The translations under genes were made by a program, and so were the position numbers. From a virus (taxonomy: Duplodnaviria; Heunggongvirae; Uroviricota; Caudoviricetes): 14,981 nt of DNA. The notes beneath the pieces were generated by a model. The model was not told the DNA's origin. It searched no databases and saw only the letters and a program-made list of their open reading frames with translations. The stretch's first letter is position 1, and the number at the start of each line of letters is the position of its first letter. The stretch spans positions 1 through 14,981 of the IMG/VR virus record IMGVR_UViG_2606217106_000010. One strand, given 5' to 3'. Shown one piece after another: positions 1-11,948 of this stretch.

Positions 1-472
1 TACGTCACTTAAAAAACTCAGGCCGCAGTCGGTAACCTCGCGCATACAGCCGGGCAGTGACGTCATCGTCTGCGCGGAAATGGACGAACAGTGGGGCTAT
101 GTCGGGGCTAAATCGCGCCAGCGCTGGCTGTTTTACGCGTATGACAGGCTCCGGAAGACGGTTGTTGCGCACGTATTCGGTGAACGCACTATGGCGACGC
201 TGGGGCGTCTTATGAGCCTGCTGTCACCCTTTGACGTGGTGATATGGATGACGGATGGCTGGCCGCTGTATGAATCCCGCCTGAAGGGAAAGCTGCACGT
301 AATCAGCAAGCGATATACGCAGCGAATTGAGCGGCATAACCTGAATCTGAGGCAGCACCTGGCACGGCTGGGACGGAAGTCGCTGTCGTTCTCAAAATCG
401 GTGGAGCTGCATGACAAAGTCATCGGGCATTATCTGAACATAAAACACTATCAATAAGTTGGAGTCATTACC
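1..472 (+). mobile_element. IS1 insertion sequence, right-hand ~470 bp; the rest lies left of the window
   Basis: Sequence ends with the characteristic IS1 terminus ...CAATAAGTTGGAGTCATTACC at 451-472, and the internal ORF is InsB. The element is cut by the window edge, so its completeness cannot be judged. Confidence 0.9.
2..457 (+). CDS. insB: IS1 transposase InsB, C-terminal portion (5' partial at window edge)
   Basis: The frame is open from nt 2 and translates ...[48 protein letters not shown]...[15 protein letters not shown], matching IS1 InsB as I recall it. The provided ORF 80..457 is the internal-Met part of this frame. Confidence 0.9.
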
Positions 473-516
473 GGAAGCTAATTCTGATATTAGCGATCCC
501 ATGTATTATTGGTTTT

Positions 517-1887
517 ATGCCAGCTCCGGCAGGATTAAGCGAACTGGCGTGGGTGCTTTTTGGTATTTACCTGGCGGCCATTGTGGGGCTGGTTATCAAG
601 CCTTTCCCGGAACCTGTCGTACTGTTAATTGCCGTTGCTGCCTCAATGGTGGTGGTCGGTAACTTATCCGACGGTGCGTTTAAAACCACCGCCGTATTAA
701 GCGGTTACTCTTCAGGTACCACCTGGCTGGTGTTCTCGGCGTTTACCTTAAGCGCCGCATTTGTGACCACCGGTTTAGGTAAACGTATTGCCTATCTGCT
801 GATTGGTAAAATCGGTAACACCACGCTGGGTCTGGGTTACGTTACGGTATTCCTCGATCTGGTACTGGCTCCGGCAACACCGTCTAACACCGCGCGTGCG
901 GGCGGCATTGTGTTACCGATCATCAACAGCGTGGCGGTGGCTTTGGGGTCCGAACCGGAAAAAAGTCCGCGTCGTGTCGGACATTACCTGATGATGTCCA
1001 TTTACATGGTCACCAAAACCACCAGCTATATGTTCTTTACCGCAATGGCGGGGAACATTCTGGCGCTGAAAATGATCAACGACATTCTGCACCTGCAAAT
1101 TAGCTGGGGTGGATGGGCGCTGGCAGCCGGATTGCCGGGCATCATTATGCTGCTGGTCACCCCGCTGGTGATTTACACCATGTATCCACCAGAAATTAAG
1201 AAGGTGGATAACAAAACCATCGCTAAAGCGGGCCTTGCCGAACTAGGACCGATGAAAATCCGCGAAAAAATGCTGCTCGGTGTCTTTGTGCTGGCGCTGC
1301 TGGGCTGGATTTTCAGTAAGTCTCTGGGGGTTGATGAATCCACCGTGGCAATCGTTGTTATGGCAACCATGCTGCTGCTGGGTATCGTTACCTGGGAAGA
1401 CGTGGTTAAAAATAAAGGCGGCTGGAATACCTTAATCTGGTACGGCGGTATTATCGGCTTAAGCTCCTTATTATCGAAAGTTAAATTCTTCGAATGGTTA
1501 GCTGAAGTCTTTAAAAATAACCTGGCATTTGATGGTCACGGTAACGTTGCTTTCTTCGTTATTATTTTCCTCAGCATTATCGTGCGTTATTTCTTCGCTT
1601 CCGGTAGTGCCTATATCGTTGCTATGTTACCGGTATTTGCCATGCTGGCGAACGTCTCCGGCGCACCGTTAATGTTAACCGCGCTGGCACTGTTGTTCTC
1701 CAACTCCTATGGCGGCATGGTTACTCACTATGGCGGCGCGGCAGGTCCGGTCATCTTTGGCGTGGGTTATAACGATATTAAATCCTGGTGGTTGGTCGGT
1801 GCGGTACTGACGATATTAACCTTCCTGGTGCATATCACCCTCGGCGTGTGGTGGTGGAATATGCTGATCGGCTGGAACATGCTGTAA
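517..1887 (+). CDS. ybhI: DASS-family (divalent anion:Na+ symporter-like) inner-membrane transporter YbhI; the N-terminus may be truncated by the upstream IS1
   Basis: 456-aa ORF, highly hydrophobic with many predicted TM segments, matching E. coli YbhI in sequence and in its position before ybhJ/ybhC. No ATG/GTG/TTG exists in frame between the upstream stop (412-414) and 517. The in-frame upstream codons 472-516 encode a hydrophobic stretch (RKLILILAIPCIIGF) that looks like coding sequence running into the IS1 end. Confidence 0.85.
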   Translation: MPAPAGLSELAWVLFGIYLAAIVGLVIKPFPEPVVLLIAVAASMVVVGNLSDGAFKTTAVLSGYSSGTTWLVFSAFTLSAAFVTTGLGKRIAYLLIGKIGNTTLGLGYVTVFLDLVLAPATPSNTARAGGIVLPIINSVAVALGSEPEKSPRRVGHYLMMSIYMVTKTTSYMFFTAMAGNILALKMINDILHLQISWGGWALAAGLPGIIMLLVTPLVIYTMYPPEIKKVDNKTIAKAGLAELGPMKIREKMLLGVFVLALLGWIFSKSLGVDESTVAIVVMATMLLLGIVTWEDVVKNKGGWNTLIWYGGIIGLSSLLSKVKFFEWLAEVFKNNLAFDGHGNVAFFVIIFLSIIVRYFFASGSAYIVAMLPVFAMLANVSGAPLMLTALALLFSNSYGGMVTHYGGAAGPVIFGVGYNDIKSWWLVGAVLTILTFLVHITLGVWWWNMLIGWNML

Positions 1888-2069
1888 ATATTCTCGTCAT
1901 ACTTCAAGTTGCATGTGCTGCGTCTGCGTTCGCTCACCCCAGTCACTTACTTATGTAAGCTCCTGGGGATTCACTCGCTTGTCGCCTTCCTGCAACTCGA
2001 ATTATTTAGAGTATATCCATTTATTATCTTTCTGCGCACTTCACGGTGCGCAGATATCTGGAGCATTTG

Positions 2070-4331
2070 ATGATCAAGTTATCTGAAAAAGGCGTGTTTC
2101 TCGCCAGTAATAACGAAATAATTGCCGAAGAACATTTCACCGGCGAAATTAAAAAAGAAGAAGCCAAAAAAGGCACTATTGCCTGGTCTATTCTCTCTTC
2201 GCATAATACGTCCGGAAATATGGATAAACTTAAAATTAAGTTTGATTCATTAGCCTCTCACGATATTACCTTTGTTGGTATTGTACAGACCGCTAAAGCG
2301 TCCGGTATGGAACGTTTCCCGCTGCCGTATGTGCTGACCAACTGCCATAACTCACTCTGCGCCGTCGGCGGCACTATTAACGGTGATGACCATGTTTTTG
2401 GTTTATCGGCGGCCCAGCGTTATGGCGGTATTTTTGTGCCTCCGCATATTGCGGTCATCCATCAATATATGCGTGAGATGATGGCAGGCGGCGGCAAAAT
2501 GATCCTCGGGTCAGACAGCCACACCCGTTACGGTGCATTAGGGACAATGGCAGTCGGTGAGGGCGGCGGTGAGTTGGTAAAACAGCTGCTTAATGACACC
2601 TGGGATATCGACTATCCGGGCGTGGTTGCGGTGCATCTGACCGGAAAACCTGCGCCGTATGTGGGGCCACAGGATGTGGCGCTGGCTATCATTGGCGCGG
2701 TGTTCAAAAACGGTTACGTCAAAAACAAAGTCATGGAGTTCGTTGGACCGGGCGTTAGCGCGCTCTCTACCGATTTCCGTAACAGCGTTGACGTGATGAC
2801 CACTGAAACGACCTGTTTAAGTTCTGTCTGGCAAACCGATGAAGAAGTCCATAACTGGCTGGCGCTGCACGGTCGCGGCCAGGATTACTGCCAGCTTAAC
2901 CCTCAACCGATGGCGTACTACGATGGCTGCATCAGCGTTGATTTAAGCGCCATCAAACCAATGATTGCGCTGCCGTTCCACCCGAGCAACGTGTATGAAA
3001 TCGACACACTGAACCAGAACCTGACCGACATTCTGCGTGAGATTGAAATTGAGTCCGAACGCGTGGCGCACGGTAAAGCCAAACTCTCGCTGCTGGATAA
3101 AGTGGAAAATGGTCGCCTGAAAGTGCAGCAGGGGATTATCGCGGGCTGTTCTGGCGGTAACTACGAAAACGTCATCGCGGCGGCGAATGCACTGCGCGGT
3201 CAATCCTGTGGCAATGACACCTTCTCGCTGGCAGTTTACCCGTCATCACAGCCGGTGTTTATGGATCTCGCCAAAAAAGGTGTGGTAGCAGATTTGATTG
3301 GCGCAGGCGCAATCATCAGAACCGCGTTCTGCGGCCCATGCTTTGGCGCGGGCGATACGCCAATCAACAACGGTTTGAGTATTCGCCACACCACGCGTAA
3401 CTTCCCGAACCGCGAAGGCTCTAAGCCAGCTAATGGGCAGATGTCAGCGGTGGCGTTGATGGACGCTCGTTCTATCGCTGCGACTGCGGCAAACGGTGGC
3501 TATTTAACCTCTGCCAGCGAACTTGATTGCTGGGACAACGTGCCGGAGTACGCCTTCGATGTAACGCCGTATAAAAACCGTGTTTATCAGGGCTTTGTGA
3601 AAGGGGCAACTCAGCAACCGCTGATTTACGGGCCGAACATTAAAGACTGGCCGGAATTGGGTGCGCTGACTGACAATATCGTCCTGAAAGTGTGCTCGAA
3701 GATCCTCGACGAAGTGACCACCACCGACGAACTGATTCCTTCCGGTGAAACCTCTTCTTATCGTTCAAATCCGATTGGTCTGGCGGAGTTTACCCTGTCT
3801 CGCCGCGATCCCGGTTATGTTAGCAGAAGTAAAGCGACTGCTGAGCTGGAAAATCAGCGTCTGGCGGGGAATGTCAGCGAGCTGACAGAGGTGTTTGCGC
3901 GCATTAAGCAGATTGCTGGTCAGGAGCATATTGATCCGCTGCAAACTGAAATTGGCAGCATGGTCTATGCGGTGAAACCAGGCGATGGTTCTGCGCGTGA
4001 ACAGGCGGCGAGCTGCCAGCGTGTGATTGGCGGTCTGGCGAATATTGCCGAGGAGTACGCGACTAAACGCTATCGTTCTAACGTCATCAACTGGGGGATG
4101 TTACCGCTGCAAATGGCGGAAGTACCAACCTTTGAAGTGGGGGATTACATTTACATCCCTGGCATTAAAGCGGCGCTGGATAATCCGGGTACGACGTTTA
4201 AAGGTTATGTGATCCATGAAGATGCGCCGGTAACGGAAATTACGCTCTATATGGAAAGTCTGACTGCTGAAGAGCGCGAGATTATCAAGGCGGGTAGTTT
4301 GATTAACTTCAATAAAAACCGTCAGATGTAA
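2070..4331 (+). CDS. ybhJ: Aconitase-family protein YbhJ
   Basis: The provided ORF starts at GTG 2046, but the in-frame ATG at 2070 ([11 protein letters not shown]...) gives 753 aa, the length I recall for E. coli YbhJ. The protein has aconitase-like glycine-rich and Cys-containing regions and the expected position between ybhI and ybhC. Confidence 0.88.
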
Positions 4332-4344
4332 AAAGCGCCATGTG

Positions 4345-4552
<208 letters not shown>

Positions 4553-4564
4553 AGTTAATTGCTC

Positions 4565-5848
4565 TTACTTCTTCGCCTCTGCAACCACTTTACTACCCAC
4601 GCCGCGGTTATTGTATTCCCACATGCGGTTGTAGTTAGTGTCATTCAGATTGCGCTGTATTTCGTCGTTATCATCTACGCTGCCGGTATTACCCGCAAAC
4701 GGACGATTAGAGATCACCGCATCGGCCCACGGTTTAGCCGTGTTAAAACCTTCGTTGATGGCGCTATCACGGATCACCACCTGACCGTTGGTATTGGCAT
4801 CAACATCCAGCGAGCGGCCCAGTTGCGCCACACCATCACCGAAAGCATTGAAACGGCTGTTTACGGCGAGGAAACCGTAGTAAATGTTGGACAGCGTAGC
4901 CGGTGCAAACACATACGCTTCTTGCTGAGTACGTGAGTTCACCACGCGGAATTCGGTGTTATCGAACACCACTGCGCCGCGACCAGAAACGATATCCACA
5001 TCCCCTTCAATGTAGCTGTTGGTCACCAGCGTACGCGGCTGACGATTTGTTTCCAGACGGTTCTGCACACCGCTGTTGGTGACAAAGAAGGTGTTCTGAC
5101 GACCGAGAATGTTAACGTTGTTAATCTGTACCTGGTCACCATCAGTACGCAGTGCCACCGCCGGATGGTTACCTGCATCTACGCTATCGCCCAGCGTGTT
5201 TTCGATGGTCAGATTTTGCAGTTGCAGGCCATTGTTTTGTGACCAGAAGACCGCAGAGCAGAGAACACCGATACTGTCGCTGCGTTTGCTCTGGCAGCTA
5301 TCGTACATATACCACGCTGGTTTACCTGGCATATATTTGCCGCGCGGGTTGACGTCGTGACGCCAGTCGGCAGGGCTCATGCCACCATCAAGGGAAAGCC
5401 CAATCTTCACATCAATCGGTTTTTCACCTGTACCGTACAGAGTAATTCCACCCGGAGCGGCAGGGACATATACCGTTCCCTGATACTCACCAGGCATCAC
5501 GGCAATATACTGGCGCTTGTTGGTACGCTTGATAATTGCCGCATCTACCGCCGCCTGAATCGTGGTATGCGTTACACCTTGAGTGCCCGCCGGGCCGACA
5601 ACAAAGTCAGGTTGCGCAGGCAGGGTAATCGGGGAAGGATTCCACGCTGCAGCACCTGGTGTCAGGGATGCAAAATAGTGTTGAGCATCGAAATTCTGCG
5701 CTTCTTTTGCCGACAGAATCGGGCGAGAAGAGGTACCAGGCGCGGTTTGATCAGAAGGACGTTGATCGGGCGGGGTTGAGCTACAGGCGGTCAGCGTCAC
5801 GCCAAAAGCCAATGCCAGCGCCAGACGGGAAACTGAAAATGTGTTCAC
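4565..5848 (-). CDS. ybhC: Outer-membrane lipoprotein YbhC (pectinesterase-family fold; putative acyl-CoA thioesterase)
   Basis: 427-aa ORF with a lipoprotein signal peptide and lipobox (MNTFSVSRLALALAFGVTLTAC...). It is the last host gene before attB-lambda in E. coli, and its length matches YbhC. Confidence 0.9.
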   Translation of the reverse strand: MNTFSVSRLALALAFGVTLTACSSTPPDQRPSDQTAPGTSSRPILSAKEAQNFDAQHYFASLTPGAAAWNPSPITLPAQPDFVVGPAGTQGVTHTTIQAAVDAAIIKRTNKRQYIAVMPGEYQGTVYVPAAPGGITLYGTGEKPIDVKIGLSLDGGMSPADWRHDVNPRGKYMPGKPAWYMYDSCQSKRSDSIGVLCSAVFWSQNNGLQLQNLTIENTLGDSVDAGNHPAVALRTDGDQVQINNVNILGRQNTFFVTNSGVQNRLETNRQPRTLVTNSYIEGDVDIVSGRGAVVFDNTEFRVVNSRTQQEAYVFAPATLSNIYYGFLAVNSRFNAFGDGVAQLGRSLDVDANTNGQVVIRDSAINEGFNTAKPWADAVISNRPFAGNTGSVDDNDEIQRNLNDTNYNRMWEYNNRGVGSKVVAEAKK

Positions 5849-5879
5849 AGGTTGCTCCGGGCTATGAAATAGAAAAATG

Positions 5880-5982
5880 AATCCGTTGAAGCCTGCTTTT
5901 TTATACTAAGTTGGCATTATAAAAAAGCATTGCTTATCAATTTGTTGCAACGAACAGGTCACTATCAGTCAAAATAAAATCA
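5880..5982. other. Lambda-type attL (bacterial arm, 15-bp common core, phage P-prime arm with Int arm-type and IHF sites)
   Basis: Core GCTTTTTTATACTAA at 5895-5909 is preceded by host sequence TGAAGCCT and followed by GTTGGCATTATAAAAAAGCATTGCTTATCAATTTGTTGCAACGAACAGGTCACTATCAGTCAAAATAAAATCATTATTTGATTTCAATTTTGTCCCACTCCC, which is the lambda attP P-prime arm as I recall it. Confidence 0.92.
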
Positions 5983-7053
5983 TTATTTGATTTCAATTTT
6001 GTCCCACTCCCTGCCTCTGTCATCACGATACTGTGATGCCATGGTGTCCGACTTATGCCCGAGAAGATGTTGAGCAAATTTATCGCTTATCTGCTTCTCA
6101 TAGAGTCTTGCAGACAAACTGCGCAACTCGTGAAAGGTTGGCGGATCCCCTTCGAAGGAGAGACCTGATGCTTTTCGTGCGCGCATAAAATACCTTGATA
6201 CTGTGCCGGATGAAAGCGGTTCACGACGAGTAGATGCAATTATGGTTTCTCCGCCAAGAATCTTTTTGCATTTATCAAGTGTTTCCTTCATTGATATCCC
6301 GAGAGCATCAACATGCAATGTTGTTGGGATGGCAATTTTTACGCCTGTTTTGCTTTGCTCGACATAAAGATATCCATCTACGATATCAGACCACTTCATT
6401 TCGCATAAATCACCAACTCGCTGCCCGGTAACAACAGCCAGTTCCATTGCAAGTCTAAGCCAACATGGTGATGATTCTGCTGCTTGATAAATTTTCAGGT
6501 ATTCGTCAGCCGTAAGTCTTGATCTCCTTACCTCTGATTTTGCAGCGCGAGTGGCTGCGACCGGGTTTGTTGTTATATGGCCTTCAGCCATAGCCTCTCG
6601 GAATGCATCGCTCAGTGTTGATCTGATTAACTTGGCTGATGCCGCCTTTCCCTCGTCTATGTATCCATTGAGCATTGCCGCAATTTCTTTTGTGGTGATG
6701 TCTTCAAGTGGAGCATCAGGCAGACCCCTCCTTATTGCTTTAATTTTGCTCATGTAATTTATGAGTGTCTTCTGCTTGATTCCTCTGCTGGCCAGGATTT
6801 TTTCGTAGCGATCAAGCCATGAATGTAACGTAACGGAATTATCACTGTTGATTCTCGCTGTCAGAGGCTTGTGTTTGTGTCCTGAAAATAACTCAATGTT
6901 GGCCTGTATAGCTTCAGTGATTGCGATTCGCCTGTCTCGGCCTAATCCAAACTCTTTACCCGTCCTTGGGTCCCTGTAGCAGTAATATCCATTGTTTCTT
7001 ATATAAAGGTTAGGGGGTAAATCCCGGCGCTCATGACTTCGCCTTCTTCCCAT
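5983..7053 (-). CDS. int: Phage lambda-type integrase (tyrosine recombinase)
   Basis: 356-aa ORF MGRRRSHERRDLPPNLYIRNNGYYCYRDPRTGKEF...HLLGHKSDTMASQYRDDRGREWDKIEIK, near-identical to lambda Int by recollection. It sits directly against the P-prime arm of attL, as in a lambda lysogen. Confidence 0.96.
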   Translation of the reverse strand: MGRRRSHERRDLPPNLYIRNNGYYCYRDPRTGKEFGLGRDRRIAITEAIQANIELFSGHKHKPLTARINSDNSVTLHSWLDRYEKILASRGIKQKTLINYMSKIKAIRRGLPDAPLEDITTKEIAAMLNGYIDEGKAASAKLIRSTLSDAFREAMAEGHITTNPVAATRAAKSEVRRSRLTADEYLKIYQAAESSPCWLRLAMELAVVTGQRVGDLCEMKWSDIVDGYLYVEQSKTGVKIAIPTTLHVDALGISMKETLDKCKKILGGETIIASTRREPLSSGTVSRYFMRARKASGLSFEGDPPTFHELRSLSARLYEKQISDKFAQHLLGHKSDTMASQYRDDRGREWDKIEIK

Positions 7054-7145
7054 TTCTGATCCTCTTCAAAAGGCTACCTGTTACTGGTCGATTTAAGTCA
7101 ACCTTTACCGCTGATTCGTGGAACAGATATTCTCTTCCATCCTTA
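7031..7145 (-). pseudogene. xis: xis remnant: only the C-terminal ~37 codons of lambda-type excisionase remain
   Basis: The reverse strand encodes ...KDGREYLFHESAVKVDLNRPVTGSLLKRIRNGKKAKS* and overlaps the int start as in lambda. Lambda-like sequence ends near 7145/7146, with no upstream xis start codon or N-terminal coding sequence. Confidence 0.75.
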
Positions 7146-7155
7146 TATAACCAGG

Positions 7156-7336
7156 TGAATCATTTGATACCGACAAGGGTTTTAGTGAAAGGAGGTGAAA
7201 TCACCTGTAAGATACTGAAATAAAACAGGTGATGGCTAGATGTGCGGATAAGGTCTATTTGATACCGATTGTGCAATAATTAGTCATTTATTATAAAATC
7301 GGCAACTCATTTGATACTGTGGTTTTAGTCTTTTAA
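7156..7336 (+). repeat. Putative left end (attL) of a Mu-like transposable prophage with three direct transposase-binding-site-like repeats
   Basis: CATTTGATACCG at 7161-7172, TATTTGATACCG at 7256-7267 and CATTTGATACTG at 7308-7319 are direct repeats; repeats 1 and 3 are each followed by GGTTTTAGT. Spacing of ~95 and ~52 bp resembles Mu L1-L2-L3. A candidate terminal 5'-TG lies at 7156-7157. Confidence 0.55.
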
Positions 7337-7377
7337 GGCGTTCCAAACAATGCGAAATACTCGATATAGTGCAAAAT

Positions 7378-7406
7378 GCGGGCTAATGCTATTAACCCGC
7401 TTTTGG
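7378..7406 (-). terminator. Possible hairpin terminator overlapping the 3' end of the repressor gene
   Basis: GCGGG (7378-7382) and CCCGC (7396-7400) form a 5-bp stem with a 13-nt loop, flanked by a T/A-rich run on either strand. The stem is short. Confidence 0.3.
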
Positions 7407-7937
7407 TTCTACCGCGTTAGATTTGCGACTTCTCTCAGTTTCTTCCAAAATCTCTCTGACGCGTTCGTCAGACATACCTTCAAGCTGTAATGCAGCTATT
7501 CTTTTCCTTCCTTCTAAGCGGATTAGATCTTGATTTTCAGGCTCTAACAACCGAGCTAAGTACTTGGCTCCATTCAGAACCAAATTTTTCGATAGCTGCT
7601 CTAAGTCTTTTTCATCAAGTGCGCTGATAATCGTCATAATTATCTTCTTGCTTTCATCTTGATTTTCCTTGATCTCACAACGATTCACTTGTGATGCATC
7701 ACTGAATCCACATAGCCACTCAACACTTACTCCTTCGATAGACGCAATCTGAAGGGCGACACTTAAGGATGGCTCAGTGCCACGAGACAGATAATTGTTT
7801 AGTGTTGAAAATGAAAGCCCCCAATCTCTTGCTGCAGCTCTGACGCTGCGGGAGCCAATCAGCCTTTTCAGACGCTCAGCAATGCTTTCTTTTCTACCAC
7901 CAGGAAAAGAAAGAGATGTTGTTGTTTGCTTGTTCAT
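7392..7937 (-). CDS. Prophage repressor with Cro/CI-type HTH, in the position and orientation of Mu c
   Basis: 181-aa ORF divergent from ner. The N-terminal region (IAERLKRLIGSRSVRAAARDWGLSFSTLNNYLSRGTEPSLSVALQIASIEGVSVEWL) has the pattern of an XRE/CI-family HTH. There is no obvious S24 peptidase domain. Confidence 0.7.
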   Translation of the reverse strand: MNKQTTTSLSFPGGRKESIAERLKRLIGSRSVRAAARDWGLSFSTLNNYLSRGTEPSLSVALQIASIEGVSVEWLCGFSDASQVNRCEIKENQDESKKIIMTIISALDEKDLEQLSKNLVLNGAKYLARLLEPENQDLIRLEGRKRIAALQLEGMSDERVREILEETERSRKSNAVEPKAG

Positions 7938-8121
7938 TTTCTTTTCTTCCTATCAATTTGAAATTATTAACTTTTAGTGTTGTCAGCAACCATTGATCCA
8001 CAATAGACAAAAGAAAGATGTTTTTTTGCTTTACATGAAGCAGAAGTGGATCAATACTTATATCAAATTTGATAACTAAGTTTAGTTATCAAATTTCGTA
8101 ACTTTTTAGGATAGATGAATC
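7938..8121. promoter_or_regulatory. Divergent promoter/operator region between the repressor and ner
   Basis: AT-rich 184-bp intergenic region containing a 14-bp perfect palindrome TATCAAATTTGATA (8061-8074), a further half-site copy TTATCAAATTT (8086-8096), and a 10-bp inverted repeat ATTGATCCAC (7993-8002) / GTGGATCAAT (8046-8055). Confidence 0.5.
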
Positions 8122-8352
8122 ATGGCGAGAAATGAAGTTAAGCCTGATTGGCATCCTCAAAGAATTTTGGGGGAAGTCAGAGCCAGAGAAGGAAGCATGA
8201 GGGCGCTGGCCCGTAAAGCTGGCGTGGGTCAGAACAATCTGTACAACGCGGTATACCGCCATGTTCCCAAGTATGAGGGGATTATCGCGGAATGCCTGGG
8301 GGTGCCGCCCGAGGAGATTTGGCCCAGCCGCTACATTCGTAAGGTCGCGTAA
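8122..8352 (+). CDS. ner: Ner-like DNA-binding protein (Mu Ner / Nlp family)
   Basis: 76-aa ORF containing the motif EEIWPSRY (cf. Mu Ner ...PEVIWPSRY) and a KPDWHPQRILG N-terminus resembling Mu Ner. It is the first gene of the rightward operon and sits immediately before the transposase gene. Confidence 0.85.
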   Translation: MARNEVKPDWHPQRILGEVRAREGSMRALARKAGVGQNNLYNAVYRHVPKYEGIIAECLGVPPEEIWPSRYIRKVA

Positions 8353-8354
8353 TT

Positions 8355-10442
8355 ATGTTTGCTTCAGTCAAAGAACTGGTTGGATTACCGGGGATGCCGG
8401 GAACGGAGCAAGGCGTTCGCTATTCAATCAGGAAGTATGCAACCAGCGAAACCAGCAGACGCCGCAAGAAAGGCGCTAAAGGTTTTGAATACAGCATTGA
8501 CTGTTTACCTGAAGTGACACAGCAGGCATTACGCGAACGTTATGCCCTGCAACTGATGACGCAAAAAGCCGATGAATCACCGGCTCCGGTGGTGACAAAG
8601 GCCAGACGCTCGTCTGCCGTGGTTGATGCGGTGGAGGCATATCGCGGATCACCACAACTGATGGTCGAACGCCTCAATGCCCTGACTGAAAACCAGCGCC
8701 AGGTGGCAGACGCACGCATTGCGATCGTCAGTGAGGTGCTGAAATTCACGCAACAACCCGGTTTCAGCTGCGCTAAAGCTATCCGGTTCATCGTTGACCG
8801 CCTGTCACACTCGCAACTGGATGAGCGCATTGTGGCAATGGTTGAGATAGCGAACGCCAGAAAGGGAAACAGTCGCGTGTTGAGTGAAATCACGCTGAAA
8901 CGCTGGATTGCGGCCTTTAATAAGGCACAGAACGCTGCTGAACGCCTGCTTTTGCTGGCACCAGGTAAACGCCAGGAAATAAAAGCCGAAGATATTAACT
9001 GGTTGCCCGAATTTCTGGCGCAGTATCGCCAGTCAAACGGCCGACCAATGACCGAGGCTTACGAGGATTTTGTTGCCGAATGGCAGCACCGGCACGCTGA
9101 TGAGCCTTATATGCTCGATATCATGCCGTCTTATGACACCATTCGCCGCGCAATGAAGAAACTGCCGGAAGTGGTGAAACAAAAAGGACGGGTTACCGGC
9201 AGTGAATACCGCCAGCTTGAGGGATTCACGCGCCGCGACTGGTCAAAAATGCCGGTGAATTATGTCTGGATTGGTGACGGTCACGGCATGAAGCTGAAAT
9301 GCGCGCACCCGGTTCACGGGCGGCCATTCGCACCGGAAGTGACCTTTGTTATCGACGGTGGCACGCGCTTTGTGGTGGGCTGGAGCCTTGACCTGGCTGA
9401 AAATGTTTTCGCCGTAGCCGGTGCCATACAGCACGGTATTCGCCATCATGGCAAACCGTTTCTGTATTACTCGGATAATGGCTCCGGGGAAACCGCCGAC
9501 GTCCTGGATAAGGAGATTGTGGGGATACTGCCACGACTGGGGATTAATCACCCGACAGGGATTGCCGGTAATCCGCAGGGACGGGGCATTATCGAACGGC
9601 TTAACCGCACATTACCGATGCGCATAGCCCGTAAATACCGCACCTATTTCGGGAAAGGAGCAGATCGCGAGACGTTACGTAAAACCAACCGCGATTTACG
9701 CTCGGCATTCAGTGCCCTGCAACAGGGCAAACGGCTGAACGCCCGGCAGCAGTCAGCGATGCGTGATTTACCGTCCTGGTCTGAACTGATTGATGCCATT
9801 CGTGACGGTGTTGAGTGGTACAACAACCGGCCGCACGATGAATTACCCATGAAGCCGAACGGTAAACATTACAGCCCGGCGGAGTTCAGAAAAAAACGCC
9901 TGGCGGAAGAGGACACGGAAATTGAATGGCTGTCCGATGTTGAACTGCGGGATATGTTCCGGCCGATGGTGGAGCGCCCTGTAAGACGCTGTGAAATACG
10001 CTGGCTGAATAATATTTACTACGCGCCCGAGCTGCGTGACGAGCATGGCCGTAAGGTACTTATCAGCTATGACATTCATGATGCCGAACGAATTACCGTG
10101 CGCCGCCCGGATGGCAGCGTGATTTGCGAGGCGGTATGGGACGGCAATAAACGCGAAGCCTTCCCTGTCAGCGCGGAATACTACAAACAGCAGCAGCGCC
10201 TTAAAGGCATGCGTAAACGCGCAGAGGAAAAAATCCGTGATGCCGAGGATGAGGTTGTCAACGTGCTGGAGCACAAGCCGCAGGAGCCCTGGCTGGAAAA
10301 CATATACCGCCCTGTGGGTAATACGGTGACCGTTCAGCAACCGGTCGCTGACGATGAACCTGATGAAGAATACGAGCGTAATTTCCAGCGGGGATTGCAA
10401 CTGCTCGAAGCGAAATTAAAAGAAAGTGATCCGCTGGCCTGA
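8355..10442 (+). CDS. MuA-family DDE transposase (transposable-phage transposase A)
   Basis: 695-aa ORF. Its N-terminus resembles the MuA enhancer-binding domain (cf. Mu MELWVSPKECANLPGLPKTSAGV...GVKGGKAIEY versus here ...GLPGMPGTEQGV...GAKGFEYS). The catalytic-core region VWIGDGHGMK...ILGWSLDLAEN parallels Mu WINGDGY...ILGWRCDVSEN. It is followed by a B-like gene. Confidence 0.92.
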   Translation: MFASVKELVGLPGMPGTEQGVRYSIRKYATSETSRRRKKGAKGFEYSIDCLPEVTQQALRERYALQLMTQKADESPAPVVTKARRSSAVVDAVEAYRGSPQLMVERLNALTENQRQVADARIAIVSEVLKFTQQPGFSCAKAIRFIVDRLSHSQLDERIVAMVEIANARKGNSRVLSEITLKRWIAAFNKAQNAAERLLLLAPGKRQEIKAEDINWLPEFLAQYRQSNGRPMTEAYEDFVAEWQHRHADEPYMLDIMPSYDTIRRAMKKLPEVVKQKGRVTGSEYRQLEGFTRRDWSKMPVNYVWIGDGHGMKLKCAHPVHGRPFAPEVTFVIDGGTRFVVGWSLDLAENVFAVAGAIQHGIRHHGKPFLYYSDNGSGETADVLDKEIVGILPRLGINHPTGIAGNPQGRGIIERLNRTLPMRIARKYRTYFGKGADRETLRKTNRDLRSAFSALQQGKRLNARQQSAMRDLPSWSELIDAIRDGVEWYNNRPHDELPMKPNGKHYSPAEFRKKRLAEEDTEIEWLSDVELRDMFRPMVERPVRRCEIRWLNNIYYAPELRDEHGRKVLISYDIHDAERITVRRPDGSVICEAVWDGNKREAFPVSAEYYKQQQRLKGMRKRAEEKIRDAEDEVVNVLEHKPQEPWLENIYRPVGNTVTVQQPVADDEPDEEYERNFQRGLQLLEAKLKESDPLA

Positions 10443-10524
10443 AATAAAAAAATAACCCGAGGGGTGACTCAGGTTATTTGAGGTTTCAGTCTCGGAGAAT
10501 GCTGTCTCAAGCGAGGTGAATAAT

Positions 10525-11457
10525 ATGACCGATATTAACGATGTAATCAAGACCATTGATGAACTTATTGATGGCGGCGTACTGACGCAGTATGCCATCG
10601 CCAGAGAGGCGGGAATTTCCGACGGCACATTATCGGCTTTCCGTAAGGGAAAATATAAAGGCGATAACGCTGCTGTGGCTGCTTCCCTGCGCTCCTGGTA
10701 TGAGAACTGGAATAAACAAAGCGCACTGCCGGAACCGCCGCAGTTTGTGGAAACTCAGACAGTCCAGGAGCTGCGCGCACTGTTTCAGGCGGTTCGCCTG
10801 ATGGGCTGTATTAACGTTATTGTGGGCGTACCGGGTGTGGGTAAAACGGCCACTGCCCGTAATTACTGCCAGGAGCAACCAAACACCTGGATGATCACCC
10901 TGTCACCCGCGCACTCCAGCGTCACGGAGTGTCTGCTGGAGCTGGCCGATGCGCTGGGGATTGATTACACCCGCGCGAACAAAGGGGCATTATCCCGCGC
11001 CATCCGCCGTCGCCTGATGGGAACGCGTGGACTGGTGATTGTGGATGAGGCGGATCATCTTGGTATTGACGGTCTGGAGCAACTCCGGGCAATTCAGGAC
11101 GCCACGGGGATCGGGATGGTGCTTATTGGTAACCCGCGCGGATTGTTTAAAGGTGGACGCCGCGCCTTTGATGATTTATCGCGCCTGTTCAGCCGTCTTG
11201 CCCGTACAAAACAACTTCGCAAGGCCAAAAAGGCGGATGTGCTGGCCATTGCCAGGGCATGGGGTATCAGTGGTGAGGCCGAGCTGGCCGTCATGCAGGC
11301 TATCGCTGAAAAGCCGGGAGCGTTACGCGTTCTGACACATACGCTTAACCAGGCGTGGCTCACCGCCAGCGGTGAAGGCGCGGCGCTGACAGAAAAACAT
11401 ATTAATGCGGCCTTTAAAGAGGTTTATACCAACCCTGAATTACTCTCACAGGTGTGA
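10525..11457 (+). CDS. MuB-family AAA+ ATPase / target DNA activator
   Basis: The provided ORF starts at GTG 10516; the ATG at 10525 with a GAGGTG RBS upstream is the more likely start. Walker A VGVPGVGKT and Walker B LVIVDEADHL are present. Strong resemblance to Mu B (PEPPRFVETQTV..., QKPGALR...). Confidence 0.9.
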   Translation: MTDINDVIKTIDELIDGGVLTQYAIAREAGISDGTLSAFRKGKYKGDNAAVAASLRSWYENWNKQSALPEPPQFVETQTVQELRALFQAVRLMGCINVIVGVPGVGKTATARNYCQEQPNTWMITLSPAHSSVTECLLELADALGIDYTRANKGALSRAIRRRLMGTRGLVIVDEADHLGIDGLEQLRAIQDATGIGMVLIGNPRGLFKGGRRAFDDLSRLFSRLARTKQLRKAKKADVLAIARAWGISGEAELAVMQAIAEKPGALRVLTHTLNQAWLTASGEGAALTEKHINAAFKEVYTNPELLSQV

Positions 11458-11459
11458 TT

Positions 11460-11681
11460 ATGGTGATATTTAATATTCCTGATATTTACGGACGCTTTCA
11501 CCTGGTGAATTTCGATAACGTCAAAGCAGTCTCCGTGTCTGACAGTGAAGAATGTGGCGATTTACTTTTTGAATTTAATGATCGCACCAGAATGGCAATA
11601 TCGGCAGGACTTGATCGTGAAGGTGCGAAAGAAGCTTACAGCAATATTTGTCGTTTTATCGGTGCAAAACGAATCAGCTAA
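11460..11681 (+). CDS. Hypothetical small early protein (positional equivalent of Mu kil)
   Basis: 73-aa ORF starting at an ATG that overlaps the end of the B gene (a GTG at 11454 is an alternative start). It has the same orientation as the early operon. No recognisable motif. Confidence 0.5.
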   Translation: MVIFNIPDIYGRFHLVNFDNVKAVSVSDSEECGDLLFEFNDRTRMAISAGLDREGAKEAYSNICRFIGAKRIS

Positions 11682-11693
11682 ACGAGGTGTTAT

Positions 11694-11948
11694 ATGAATA
11701 TGCAATCCTGCGGTAACAAAATGAATTTATTCGACTCCCTGAACAGCGCGCGCCGTCTGACCGAACTTGCCGGTGCGGTACTGGAACGCAGTAAGCGCTA
11801 CCCACAACGTTTTGCACTGAAAACCACGCCGCCGGTAGGCAACGTGCAGGGAACCGGTGAAATTGAAATCACCATACAGACCAACGGCCTGCGCCGCCGT
11901 GTGAAGGCCACCCGCATAAGCGGATGCACGGTTTACTGGGAGGTGTGA
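11694..11948 (+). CDS. Hypothetical early-region protein
   Basis: 84-aa ORF with a GAGGTG RBS 5 nt upstream, tightly packed in the operon. Function unknown. Confidence 0.5.
   Translation: MNMQSCGNKMNLFDSLNSARRLTELAGAVLERSKRYPQRFALKTTPPVGNVQGTGEIEITIQTNGLRRRVKATRISGCTVYWEV

Follow-up and report, generated by a model that had tools for sequence, protein, structure and literature searches.

IS1 insertions are classically polar, in either orientation, and the polar mutations gal::IS1 and lac::IS1 are close counterparts of the ybhI allele described here. They share with it the same 768 bp IS1 with imperfect inverted repeats, a 9 bp target site duplication (TSD) and an AT-rich target within a gene. 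The disruption of the gene and the downstream polarity to be expected are also the same, and the mechanism is no different. Unlike these mutations, the insertion considered here lies at codon 10 and leaves an almost full-length downstream open reading frame (ORF), which is still called as a protein of 456 or 477 aa. The TSD of IS1 is 8 or 9 bp (PMC12428005), and the element prefers AT-rich targets, with 9 bp TSDs in 78% of events (PMC10359306). An A6C motif has a role in the frameshift between insA and insB', the element's own promoter is 'extremely weak', and upstream transcription has been reported to run into chromosomal IS1 copies (PMC12428005).

A further described role of IS1 is the formation of fusion promoters, for which blaTEM-1 and acrEF are the precedents given in a review (PMC9330008, citing Prentki et al., 1986; Olliver et al., 2005). 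In such cases the IS1 end lies against AT-rich DNA upstream of an ORF, an arrangement able to give a hybrid -35/-10 promoter. The ybhI junction resembles these cases in that respect, but has no hexamer pair of acceptable match and spacing, and the insertion takes away the ribosome binding site (RBS) and start codon of the target gene rather than leaving both in place downstream. The target gene belongs to ybhHIJ, a cluster regulated by YbhD and Nac with a tentative link to L-malate or tricarboxylate use; a growth phenotype dependent on L-malate is reported for the ybhD deletion (PMC9068703). Like other DASS transporters (TC 2.A.47), such as plant DiT1 and DiT2.1 and LaINDY, YbhI is a family member, with an end-to-end match to Pfam PF00939, whereas in the present allele the first 6-7 residues are coded apart from the rest, and a protein started at Met22 would omit the first conserved hydrophobic segment.

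The window analysed here (14,981 nucleotides) is the whole of the draft contig JNRB01000090.1 from E. coli GCA_000704465.1, and starts inside an IS1; a search of the literature on this assembly accession found nothing relevant. An Rfam scan of the window returned only the REP-derived naRNA4, far from the IS1/ybhI junction. The features that concern us are as follows.

1 to 472, + strand: right-hand part of IS1 (IS1 nt 297-768), an exact substring of the copy in strain 20AR0300 (locus L002), co-oriented with ybhI
2 to 457, + strand: insB' frame, coding for the C-terminal portion of the InsAB' transposase and closed by TAA at 455-457 (listed as an ORF at 80-457)
11 to 17, + strand: A6C (AAAAAAC) programmed -1 frameshift motif of insA/insB', IS1 nt 307 onward
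450 to 472, no strand: right inverted repeat (IRR) of IS1
454 to 1887, + strand: chimeric 477 aa coding sequence, in sister genomes annotated by PGAP as 'ybhI anion permease', with an ATA start in the IRR and its first seven residues, MSWSHYR, from IS1-derived codons
473 to 481, no strand: right copy of the TSD, GGAAGCTAA (ybhI CDS nt 20-28), as defined by the flanks in 20AR0300; the left copy is outside the window
473 to 516, + strand: ybhI from the last 2 nt of codon 7 through codon 21, 100% identical to K-12 (locus L001, 2501-2544), in frame, without canonical start, RBS or promoter
517 to 1887, + strand: rest of ybhI from Met22 to the stop (456 aa in the ORF list), DASS-family anion permease, matching Pfam PF00939 from profile position 20 of 472 (E=1.2e-188)
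2070 to 4331, + strand: ybhJ, an aconitase-family hydratase by the K-12 annotation and a called gene in locus L031, the next gene downstream, which IS1 polarity may reach

The element itself has the characters of IS1. The copy in 20AR0300, labelled 'IS1-like element IS1A family transposase' in RefSeq, is 768 bp long and identical to the window over 1-472, and against the IS1B and IS1A copies of NCTC9040 the identity of the window segment is 99.1-99.7%. Only 472 bp of IS1 are present in the window, as the contig breaks within the repeat. Imperfect terminal repeats of about 23-30 bp are found, the left one (IRL) being taken from the 20AR0300 copy: the reverse complement of the IRR, the last 23 nt of the element, reads GGTAATGACTCCAACTTATTGAT and shares 18 of 23 positions with the IRL. 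The insB' part of the insA/insB' frames is in the window together with the A6C motif, and the domain PF03400 (DDE_Tnp_IS1) is found on the gene called at 1-457 in locus L031; insA lies outside. The preliminary description had put the IS1 terminus at 472, which is where the IRR ends, and had counted 45 bp from there to the first usable start, ATG 517; the 44 nt between them (473-516) agree with this.

The point of insertion can be read by comparison with K-12 and 20AR0300. Window position 473 corresponds to nt 20 of the ybhI CDS, and from there the window is 100% identical to K-12 up to position 3200. The complete genome of 20AR0300 has the same right junction, with the 768 bp IS1 placed after ybhI nt 28 (codon 10). 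To the left of the element ybhI runs up to nt 28, and to the right it resumes at nt 20, so that the duplication of 8-9 bp to be expected on the other side of the element is there, as 9 bp of GGAAGCTAA on both sides. Reading into the element from the left gives the peptide MNKKSLWKLR*, 10 codons followed by a TGA in the IS1 left repeat. In 20AR0300, then, ybhI is split rather than deleted. The left junction is seen in 20AR0300 alone, the window's own contig beginning inside IS1; a search with the whole window found no complete genome covering it, and a look-up with a Mu-like repressor protein, aimed at the left junction, returned only unrelated Mu insertion sites. An insertion into the extreme 5' end of ybhI had been proposed from the window sequence, and this is supported by the reference start, which lies 63 nt upstream of the equivalent of ATG 517. 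The companion claim, that ybhI is 5'-truncated or has lost its native promoter, holds in that promoter, RBS and ATG are cut off, but no loss of ybhI DNA is needed, as 20AR0300 keeps the first 28 nt to the left of IS1.

AT content is 70% over the opening 63 nt of ybhI and 50% over the whole gene. A complete IS1 most probably transposed into this AT-rich 5' end after CDS nt 28, duplicating the 9 bp, and it lies in the orientation of the ybhH-ybhI-ybhJ cluster. Across ybhH-ybhI, a simple insertion would read ...TCGTTATGGAAGCTAA / GGTGATGCTGCC..., at 777 bp above the wild-type length. The allele appears young, since the body of ybhI is still 100% identical to K-12. That body is without secondary inactivating mutations, which fits a recent knock-out and, equally, retained function.

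In K-12, ybhI (L001, 2482-3915) encodes 477 aa, the length given in the preliminary description, and begins ATG AAT AAG AAA TCG TTA TGG AAG CTA ATT, with AGGA 6 nt upstream. The insertion separates this RBS, the ATG and the first 6-7 codons from the remainder of the gene. In the arrangement of 20AR0300 the native RBS, ATG and first nine codons stand to the left of IS1 and the other 468 codons to the right, where the first canonical start is Met22. ATG 517 is the equivalent of this Met22 and not of the reference start, and opens the frame of 456 aa that had been read from it. The frame runs open from IS1 into ybhI from 415 onward, and between the in-frame stop TGA 412-414 and ATG 517 it indeed has no ATG, GTG or TTG; its near-cognate codons upstream of ATG 517 are ATA 454 and 487, ATT 481, 505 and 508, CTG 484 and ATC 496. 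No Shine-Dalgarno (SD) sequence precedes ATG 517 (best upstream match to AGGAGG 2/6). Upstream of both CTG 484 and ATT 481 there is a weak SD-like GGAAG (473-477), at 6 nt from the former and 3 nt from the latter.

The codons at 472-516 had been noted as a hydrophobic, membrane-like stretch, and they do encode one, RKLILILAIPCIIGF, with Kyte-Doolittle means over 15 residues of 2.3-2.5 in the K-12 protein. The hydropathy peak of YbhI covers residues 7-24. K-12 YbhI matches PF00939 (Na_sulph_symp) over residues 4-474 on profile positions 2-472 (E=6.6e-195, 649 bits). For the 456 aa form the match is confined to profile positions 20-472 and falls to 628 bits, a loss of 21 bits, so the longest canonical ORF of the window lacks the full-length match that includes the N-terminal helix. 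The solved structures of DiT1 (E=2e-83), DiT2.1 and LaINDY align with YbhI residues 6-472, starting at residues 6-9. Together, the alignments to Pfam and to the solved structures put residues 4-21 inside the conserved fold. With 100% nucleotide identity to K-12 ybhI from nt 20 onward, the window's gene belongs to the DASS family by descent, but it is no longer a complete member.

Taken as a whole, the locus is best explained, and with high probability, as an ordinary IS1 insertional knock-out in codon 10 of ybhI, not as a new kind of element. The allele is most likely null or severely reduced, as judged from the sequence, because transcripts would have to read through IS1 and the promoter of IS1 is very weak. 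For those that start at the ybhH-proximal promoter this would mean 768 bp of IS1 RNA, most of it not translated. Expression of ybhI would then, we infer, depend on transcription coming out of IS1 and on initiation at the internal ATG, and a protein started at Met22 would be without the hydrophobic segment that opens the DASS fold. Expression of ybhJ may also drop through polarity.

The same junction, in the same orientation, occurs in 11-12 public assemblies, which include one of 5,426 complete genomes (20AR0300), and in three sequence backgrounds. One is K-12-like, another (L032) has 17 synonymous SNPs in ybhI, and the third (L034) has a SNP 41 nt from the junction; from the junction on, both L032 and L034 have IS1-free genomes that match them at 100% identity for more than 2 kb. 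The recurrence could reflect recombination or independent insertion; the comparison covers the sequence from the junction rightward, SNPs within IS1 being no reliable guide at the ends of draft contigs. The cluster has been hit repeatedly elsewhere, the codon-10 allele being a distinct site. Independent lesions in the N-terminal part of ybhI include ATG>AAG, a codon-6 nonsense mutation, a 1 bp deletion, and IS5 and other IS1 insertions. In the complete genomes searched IS1 is also found within ybhI (nt 177-185 and nt 337-345), in the ybhH-ybhI spacer and, at four different sites, within ybhH. Strain 23AR0998 carries two IS1 insertions in the cluster, and IS1-mediated deletions from ybhD to ybhI are found in natural E. 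coli. In other genomes, an IS5 at CTAA (ybhI nt 25-28) and an IS1 in the opposite orientation also lie within 20 nt of the codon-10 site.

Some residual function is the alternative with most in its favour, although it is improbable. Here read-through from the ybhH or IS1 promoter would be translated from ATG 517, or from CTG 484 or ATT 481 behind GGAAG, into a shortened or altered YbhI that still inserts and transports. From 415 the frame continues into ybhI without a stop, low-level near-cognate initiation, as at CTG 484 with GGAAG 6 nt before it, would keep most of the first hydrophobic segment, and the lack of secondary lesions in ybhI would fit. The shortened protein begins just before the next hydrophobic segment (then Lys), which makes its insertion into the membrane conceivable. 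A certain amount of read-through is plausible too, IS1 being co-oriented with the operon and upstream transcription being reported to enter chromosomal copies (PMC12428005). However, ATG 517 has no SD, both Pfam and the solved DASS structures show conservation of the first hydrophobic segment, and absence of decay is to be expected after a recent event. Near-cognate starts, moreover, reportedly initiate at roughly 1% or less of the ATG level in E. coli, and the polarity of IS1 in both orientations is classical. Far less probable is an activating insertion, in which a -35 in the IS1 end and flanking ybhI DNA would form a fusion promoter and drive the truncated ybhI and ybhJ constitutively, independently of YbhD and Nac. 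Besides its precedents, this reading can point to TTGGAG at 459-464 as a partial -35 and to the AT-rich flank, with a -10-like TCTGAT at 483 and TGATATTAG at 485-493. Yet a stringent scan found no sigma-70-like promoter on the + strand in 1-2100, and the best hits of a relaxed scan matched 7-8 of 12 hexamer positions. At the junction the best pair, TTGGAG or TGGAGT with a spacer of 17-18 nt to TCTGAT (18 nt from TTGGAG), reaches 7/12, its -10 lacking the conserved A at position 2, and the extended -10 TATTAG is 23 nt from TTGGAG. Neither scan thus yields a plausible sigma-70 promoter at the IS1/ybhI junction, nor is an outward -35 in the IS end predicted at 16-18 nt from a flanking -10. An mRNA, even if made, would be without the ybhI RBS and start, and at one complete genome in 5,426 selection for the allele is not evident. 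With nothing convincing from either scan at the junction, the fusion promoter was dismissed as the leading reading.

That ybhI is intact, as PGAP has it, and makes a 477 aa YbhI from ATA 454 inside IS1, has hardly any probability, even though the chimeric protein (WP_032188575.1, at 4155-5588 in 20AR0300, locus L002, and exactly the same on 11-12 contigs) is a RefSeq 'anion permease' of wild-type length. ATA is a very poor initiator, the match to AGGAGG upstream of it is at best 2/6, and it lies within the IRR, 1 nt before the insB' stop codon. The equal length is forced by geometry (454 = 473 - 19), and residues 2-7 are the IS1-derived SWSHYR in place of NKKSLW. The intact call is most likely a homology-driven annotation artefact. 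An assembly artefact, with IS1 reads fused to ybhI at a chimeric contig end, is just as remote. This short-read draft contig does begin in a multi-copy repeat, but the closed 20AR0300 chromosome has the identical junction, there with a proper TSD, and the junction recurs in 10 further assemblies, drawn from several projects. Chance is not at issue, since the junction is a physical one and not a statistical pattern. A more elaborate proposal would have the first ~55 nt of ybhI, specifically GGAAGCTAA, as an IS hot spot hit independently in several lineages, with the junction yielding low-level functional chimeric or Met22 YbhI as a regulatory variant. It is compatible with the same junction in three backgrounds, with the 100% identity of L032 and L034 to IS1-free genomes from the junction on, and with the IS5 and opposite IS1 within 20 nt, and as a whole it is unlikely. 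That lesions cluster within codons 1-21 was set aside as evidence for a hot spot, being an ascertainment effect of the 456 aa product look-up, which returns only genomes with an N-terminal lesion. Nor do the numbers call for an enrichment of IS elements in the region: there are ~15 IS hits in ybhHIJ among 5,426 genomes with a median of ~10 IS1 places each, and by a rough estimate random insertion into a dispensable region of ~5 kb would produce as many.

The biological weight of the favoured reading, an insertional knock-out, is small: natural IS1 knock-outs gain a further example, in a transporter gene that is poorly characterised. That gene is evidently dispensable in nature, given the independent N-terminal lesions and the IS1 hits across ybhH, ybhI and ybhJ, and this collection of independent lesions suggests relaxed selection on the cluster in E. 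coli. The disrupted ybhI passes as an intact 'anion permease' in annotation pipelines, at 477 aa in PGAP and at 456 aa with other callers, so pan-genome and pseudogene surveys that take such automated calls will miss the disruption. Natural ybhI mutants of this kind could serve as ready-made strains for tests of the function of the cluster.

The insertion event is read most directly in E. coli strain 20AR0300, a complete sister genome with an identical right junction, which supplies the left end of IS1; the window covers the right junction only. In 20AR0300 the DNA to the left of IS1 carries ybhI up to nt 28 and that to the right picks up again at nt 20; between them is a 768-bp IS1 with the 9-bp direct repeat GGAAGCTAA on each side. 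These junctions are the signature of simple IS1 transposition, and they support the preliminary description, which placed the insertion in the extreme 5' end of ybhI and proposed a search for a target-site duplication on the other side of the element. IS1 is known to make 8- or 9-bp duplications (PMC12428005), with 9 bp in 78% of events and a preference for AT-rich targets (PMC10359306). The A+T content of ybhI is 70% in its first 63 nt and 50% over the whole gene. The native ribosome-binding site and ATG stay to the left of IS1 in 20AR0300, where the ATG now codes only for MNKKSLWKLR before a TGA within the left repeat.

IS1 features in the window
1-472, right-hand part of IS1 (IS1 nt 297-768, an exact substring of the 768-bp copy at the same place in 20AR0300)
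11-17, A6C frameshift motif of IS1
450-472, IS1 right inverted repeat, 23 bp, 18 of 23 positions agreeing with the left repeat
455-457, TAA stop of the insB' frame

The right inverted repeat thus ends at 472, the terminus originally proposed. The window is the whole of contig JNRB01000090.1 (14,981 bp; draft assembly GCA_000704465.1), and locus L031 matches window positions 1-11,887 base for base. Short-read assemblies break in repeats, which is why the contig begins within IS1.

From 473, 2,728 nt of the window are 100% identical to K-12, beginning at nt 20 of the ybhI coding sequence. K-12 ybhI (1,434 nt, 477 aa) opens ATG AAT AAG AAA TCG TTA TGG AAG CTA ATT CTG..., and AGGA stands 6 nt before this ATG. 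As window position 473 is ybhI nt 20, ATG 517 is Met22, and the ORF from it is 456 aa. All the factual elements of the first observation are borne out: the ybhI-frame TGA lies at 412-414, it is followed by 0 ATG, GTG or TTG codons in that frame before 517, and the lengths of 477 and 456 aa agree with the K-12 annotation and the window ORF.

The preliminary description allowed that the reference gene might itself start at the equivalent of ATG 517, and four grounds speak against this. RefSeq annotates ybhI as 477 aa, with the AGGA upstream of its ATG. In K-12 YbhI, residues 4-474 match positions 2-472 of the Pfam Na_sulph_symp profile (649 bits); the Met22 form matches from profile position 20 only (628 bits). 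Alignments to solved structures (chloroplast DiT1 and DiT2.1, and LaINDY) start at residues 6-9, and the hydrophobic peak of YbhI covers residues 7-24, with two lysines ahead of it at positions 3-4. YbhI residues 1-21 therefore lie within the family-aligned region.

IS1 exerts polar effects whichever way it is oriented. A stringent scan of window positions 1-2100 found no sigma-70 promoter on the + strand, and a relaxed scan gave at most 7-8 of 12 hexamer matches, with TCTGAT as the best partner of the IS1-end hexamer TTGGAG. No Shine-Dalgarno sequence precedes ATG 517; the sole SD-like element is GGAAG at 473-477, 6 nt ahead of a CTG and 3 nt ahead of an ATT. The promoter of IS1 itself is described as extremely weak (PMC12428005). 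Together, the lack of a promoter and of a Shine-Dalgarno at ATG 517, the weakness of the IS1 promoter and IS1 polarity make a null or strongly reduced ybhI allele the most probable outcome; the downstream ybhJ may also be affected. A trickle of read-through transcript, with initiation at Met22 or a near-cognate codon, could yield some YbhI; this is conceivable because co-oriented chromosomal IS1 copies can receive upstream transcription (PMC12428005), and we consider it improbable beside a null or strongly reduced ybhI.

The exact junction occurs in 1 of 5,426 complete E. coli genomes and in 11-12 contigs of a larger protein collection. The carriers divide into three sequence backgrounds, named here by loci of other assemblies where needed.

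Backgrounds carrying the junction
K-12-like: JNRB, JNRC, JNRD, 20AR0300, L011, L033
L032: 36 SNPs in 5.9 kb, 17 of them in ybhI and synonymous
L034: SNP 41 nt from the junction; 1.6-kb deletion inside ybhJ

IS1-free genomes exist that match the L032 and L034 backgrounds at 100% for >2 kb from the junction onward. IS1 may have entered one favoured site more than once, or recombination may have carried the insertion between backgrounds. In L034 (GCA_025828735.1), positions 2244-2245 correspond to window positions 2614/4231, a clean 1,616-bp internal ybhJ deletion with the same IS1-ybhI junction, which may represent further decay of the cluster following the IS1 hit.

YbhD and Nac regulate the ybhHIJ cluster, whose link to L-malate use is only tentative (PMC9068703). 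Lesions in ybhH, ybhI and ybhJ are frequent. Other IS1 sites lie in ybhI (n=2), ybhH (n=4) and the ybhH-ybhI spacer, and strain 23AR0998 has two IS1 insertions. IS1-mediated deletions spanning ybhD to ybhI also occur, as do a start-codon mutation, a codon-6 nonsense mutation and a 1-bp deletion in ybhI. Three further loci carry different IS events, all ≤35 nt from the present site.

Neighbouring insertions
L009 ~553-560, IS5-type element at CTAA, ybhI nt 25-28
L010 ~120-141, oppositely oriented IS1, ending before ybhI nt 39
L007 9519-9990, 92%-identical IS1 variant, ending before ybhI nt 54, with ybhH deleted

Because the lesion list comes partly from a look-up that selects N-terminal lesions, it does not show enrichment. 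By a rough estimate, complete genomes hold about as many lesions as IS1 would cause by inserting at random in a dispensable region.

Elsewhere in the window, the ybhI-ybhJ gap (1888-2016) holds a nested imperfect palindrome of ~127 bp, absent from Rfam, whose core CCCCAGTCACTTAC/GTAAGCTCCTGGGG we take to fit the ERIC/IRU consensus. Between ybhJ and ybhC, Rfam naRNA4 (REP-derived nucleoid-associated RNA) matches 4426-4496 at 60.7 bits (gathering score 59.5); the sister genomes differ from one another by SNPs and an indel concentrated in this gap, at 4407-4452. A 356-aa lambda-type integrase lies at the lambda attachment site beside ybhC (5983-7145 region). Homology to the NCTC9040 lambdoid prophage ends at 7145, within its excisionase gene, and the left arm of a Mu-like prophage runs from 7146 to the contig end (14981).

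Genes of the Mu-like arm
7392-7937, minus strand, repressor-like ORF
8355-10442, MuA

This arm also carries ner-like, MuB, kil and gam genes, and shares ~94% identity with regions annotated as 'inserted Bacteriophage Mu-like phage' in two Stx-converting phages; the Mu-like phage sits inserted inside another prophage.

In carriers of the junction, PGAP calls a 477-aa 'anion permease' starting within IS1.

Automated gene call
454-1887 (4155-5588 in the 20AR0300 locus), PGAP ybhI, WP_032188575.1, ATA start in the IS1 right inverted repeat

Residues 2-7 of this protein come from IS1-derived codons, and ATA 454 has no Shine-Dalgarno sequence. The 'wild-type length' is set by junction geometry, and an intact 477-aa ybhI from ATA 454 is therefore regarded as an annotation artefact. 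The 90%-identity protein cluster containing YbhI also includes many 350-aa entries for YbhH (4-oxalomesaconate tautomerase), presumably because a gene call that is fused or reads through chains the two together, a database oddity rather than biology. The ybhI allele is a textbook case of a non-essential transporter gene disrupted by IS1 insertion, and its chief practical interest is that the disruption is concealed by automated annotation.
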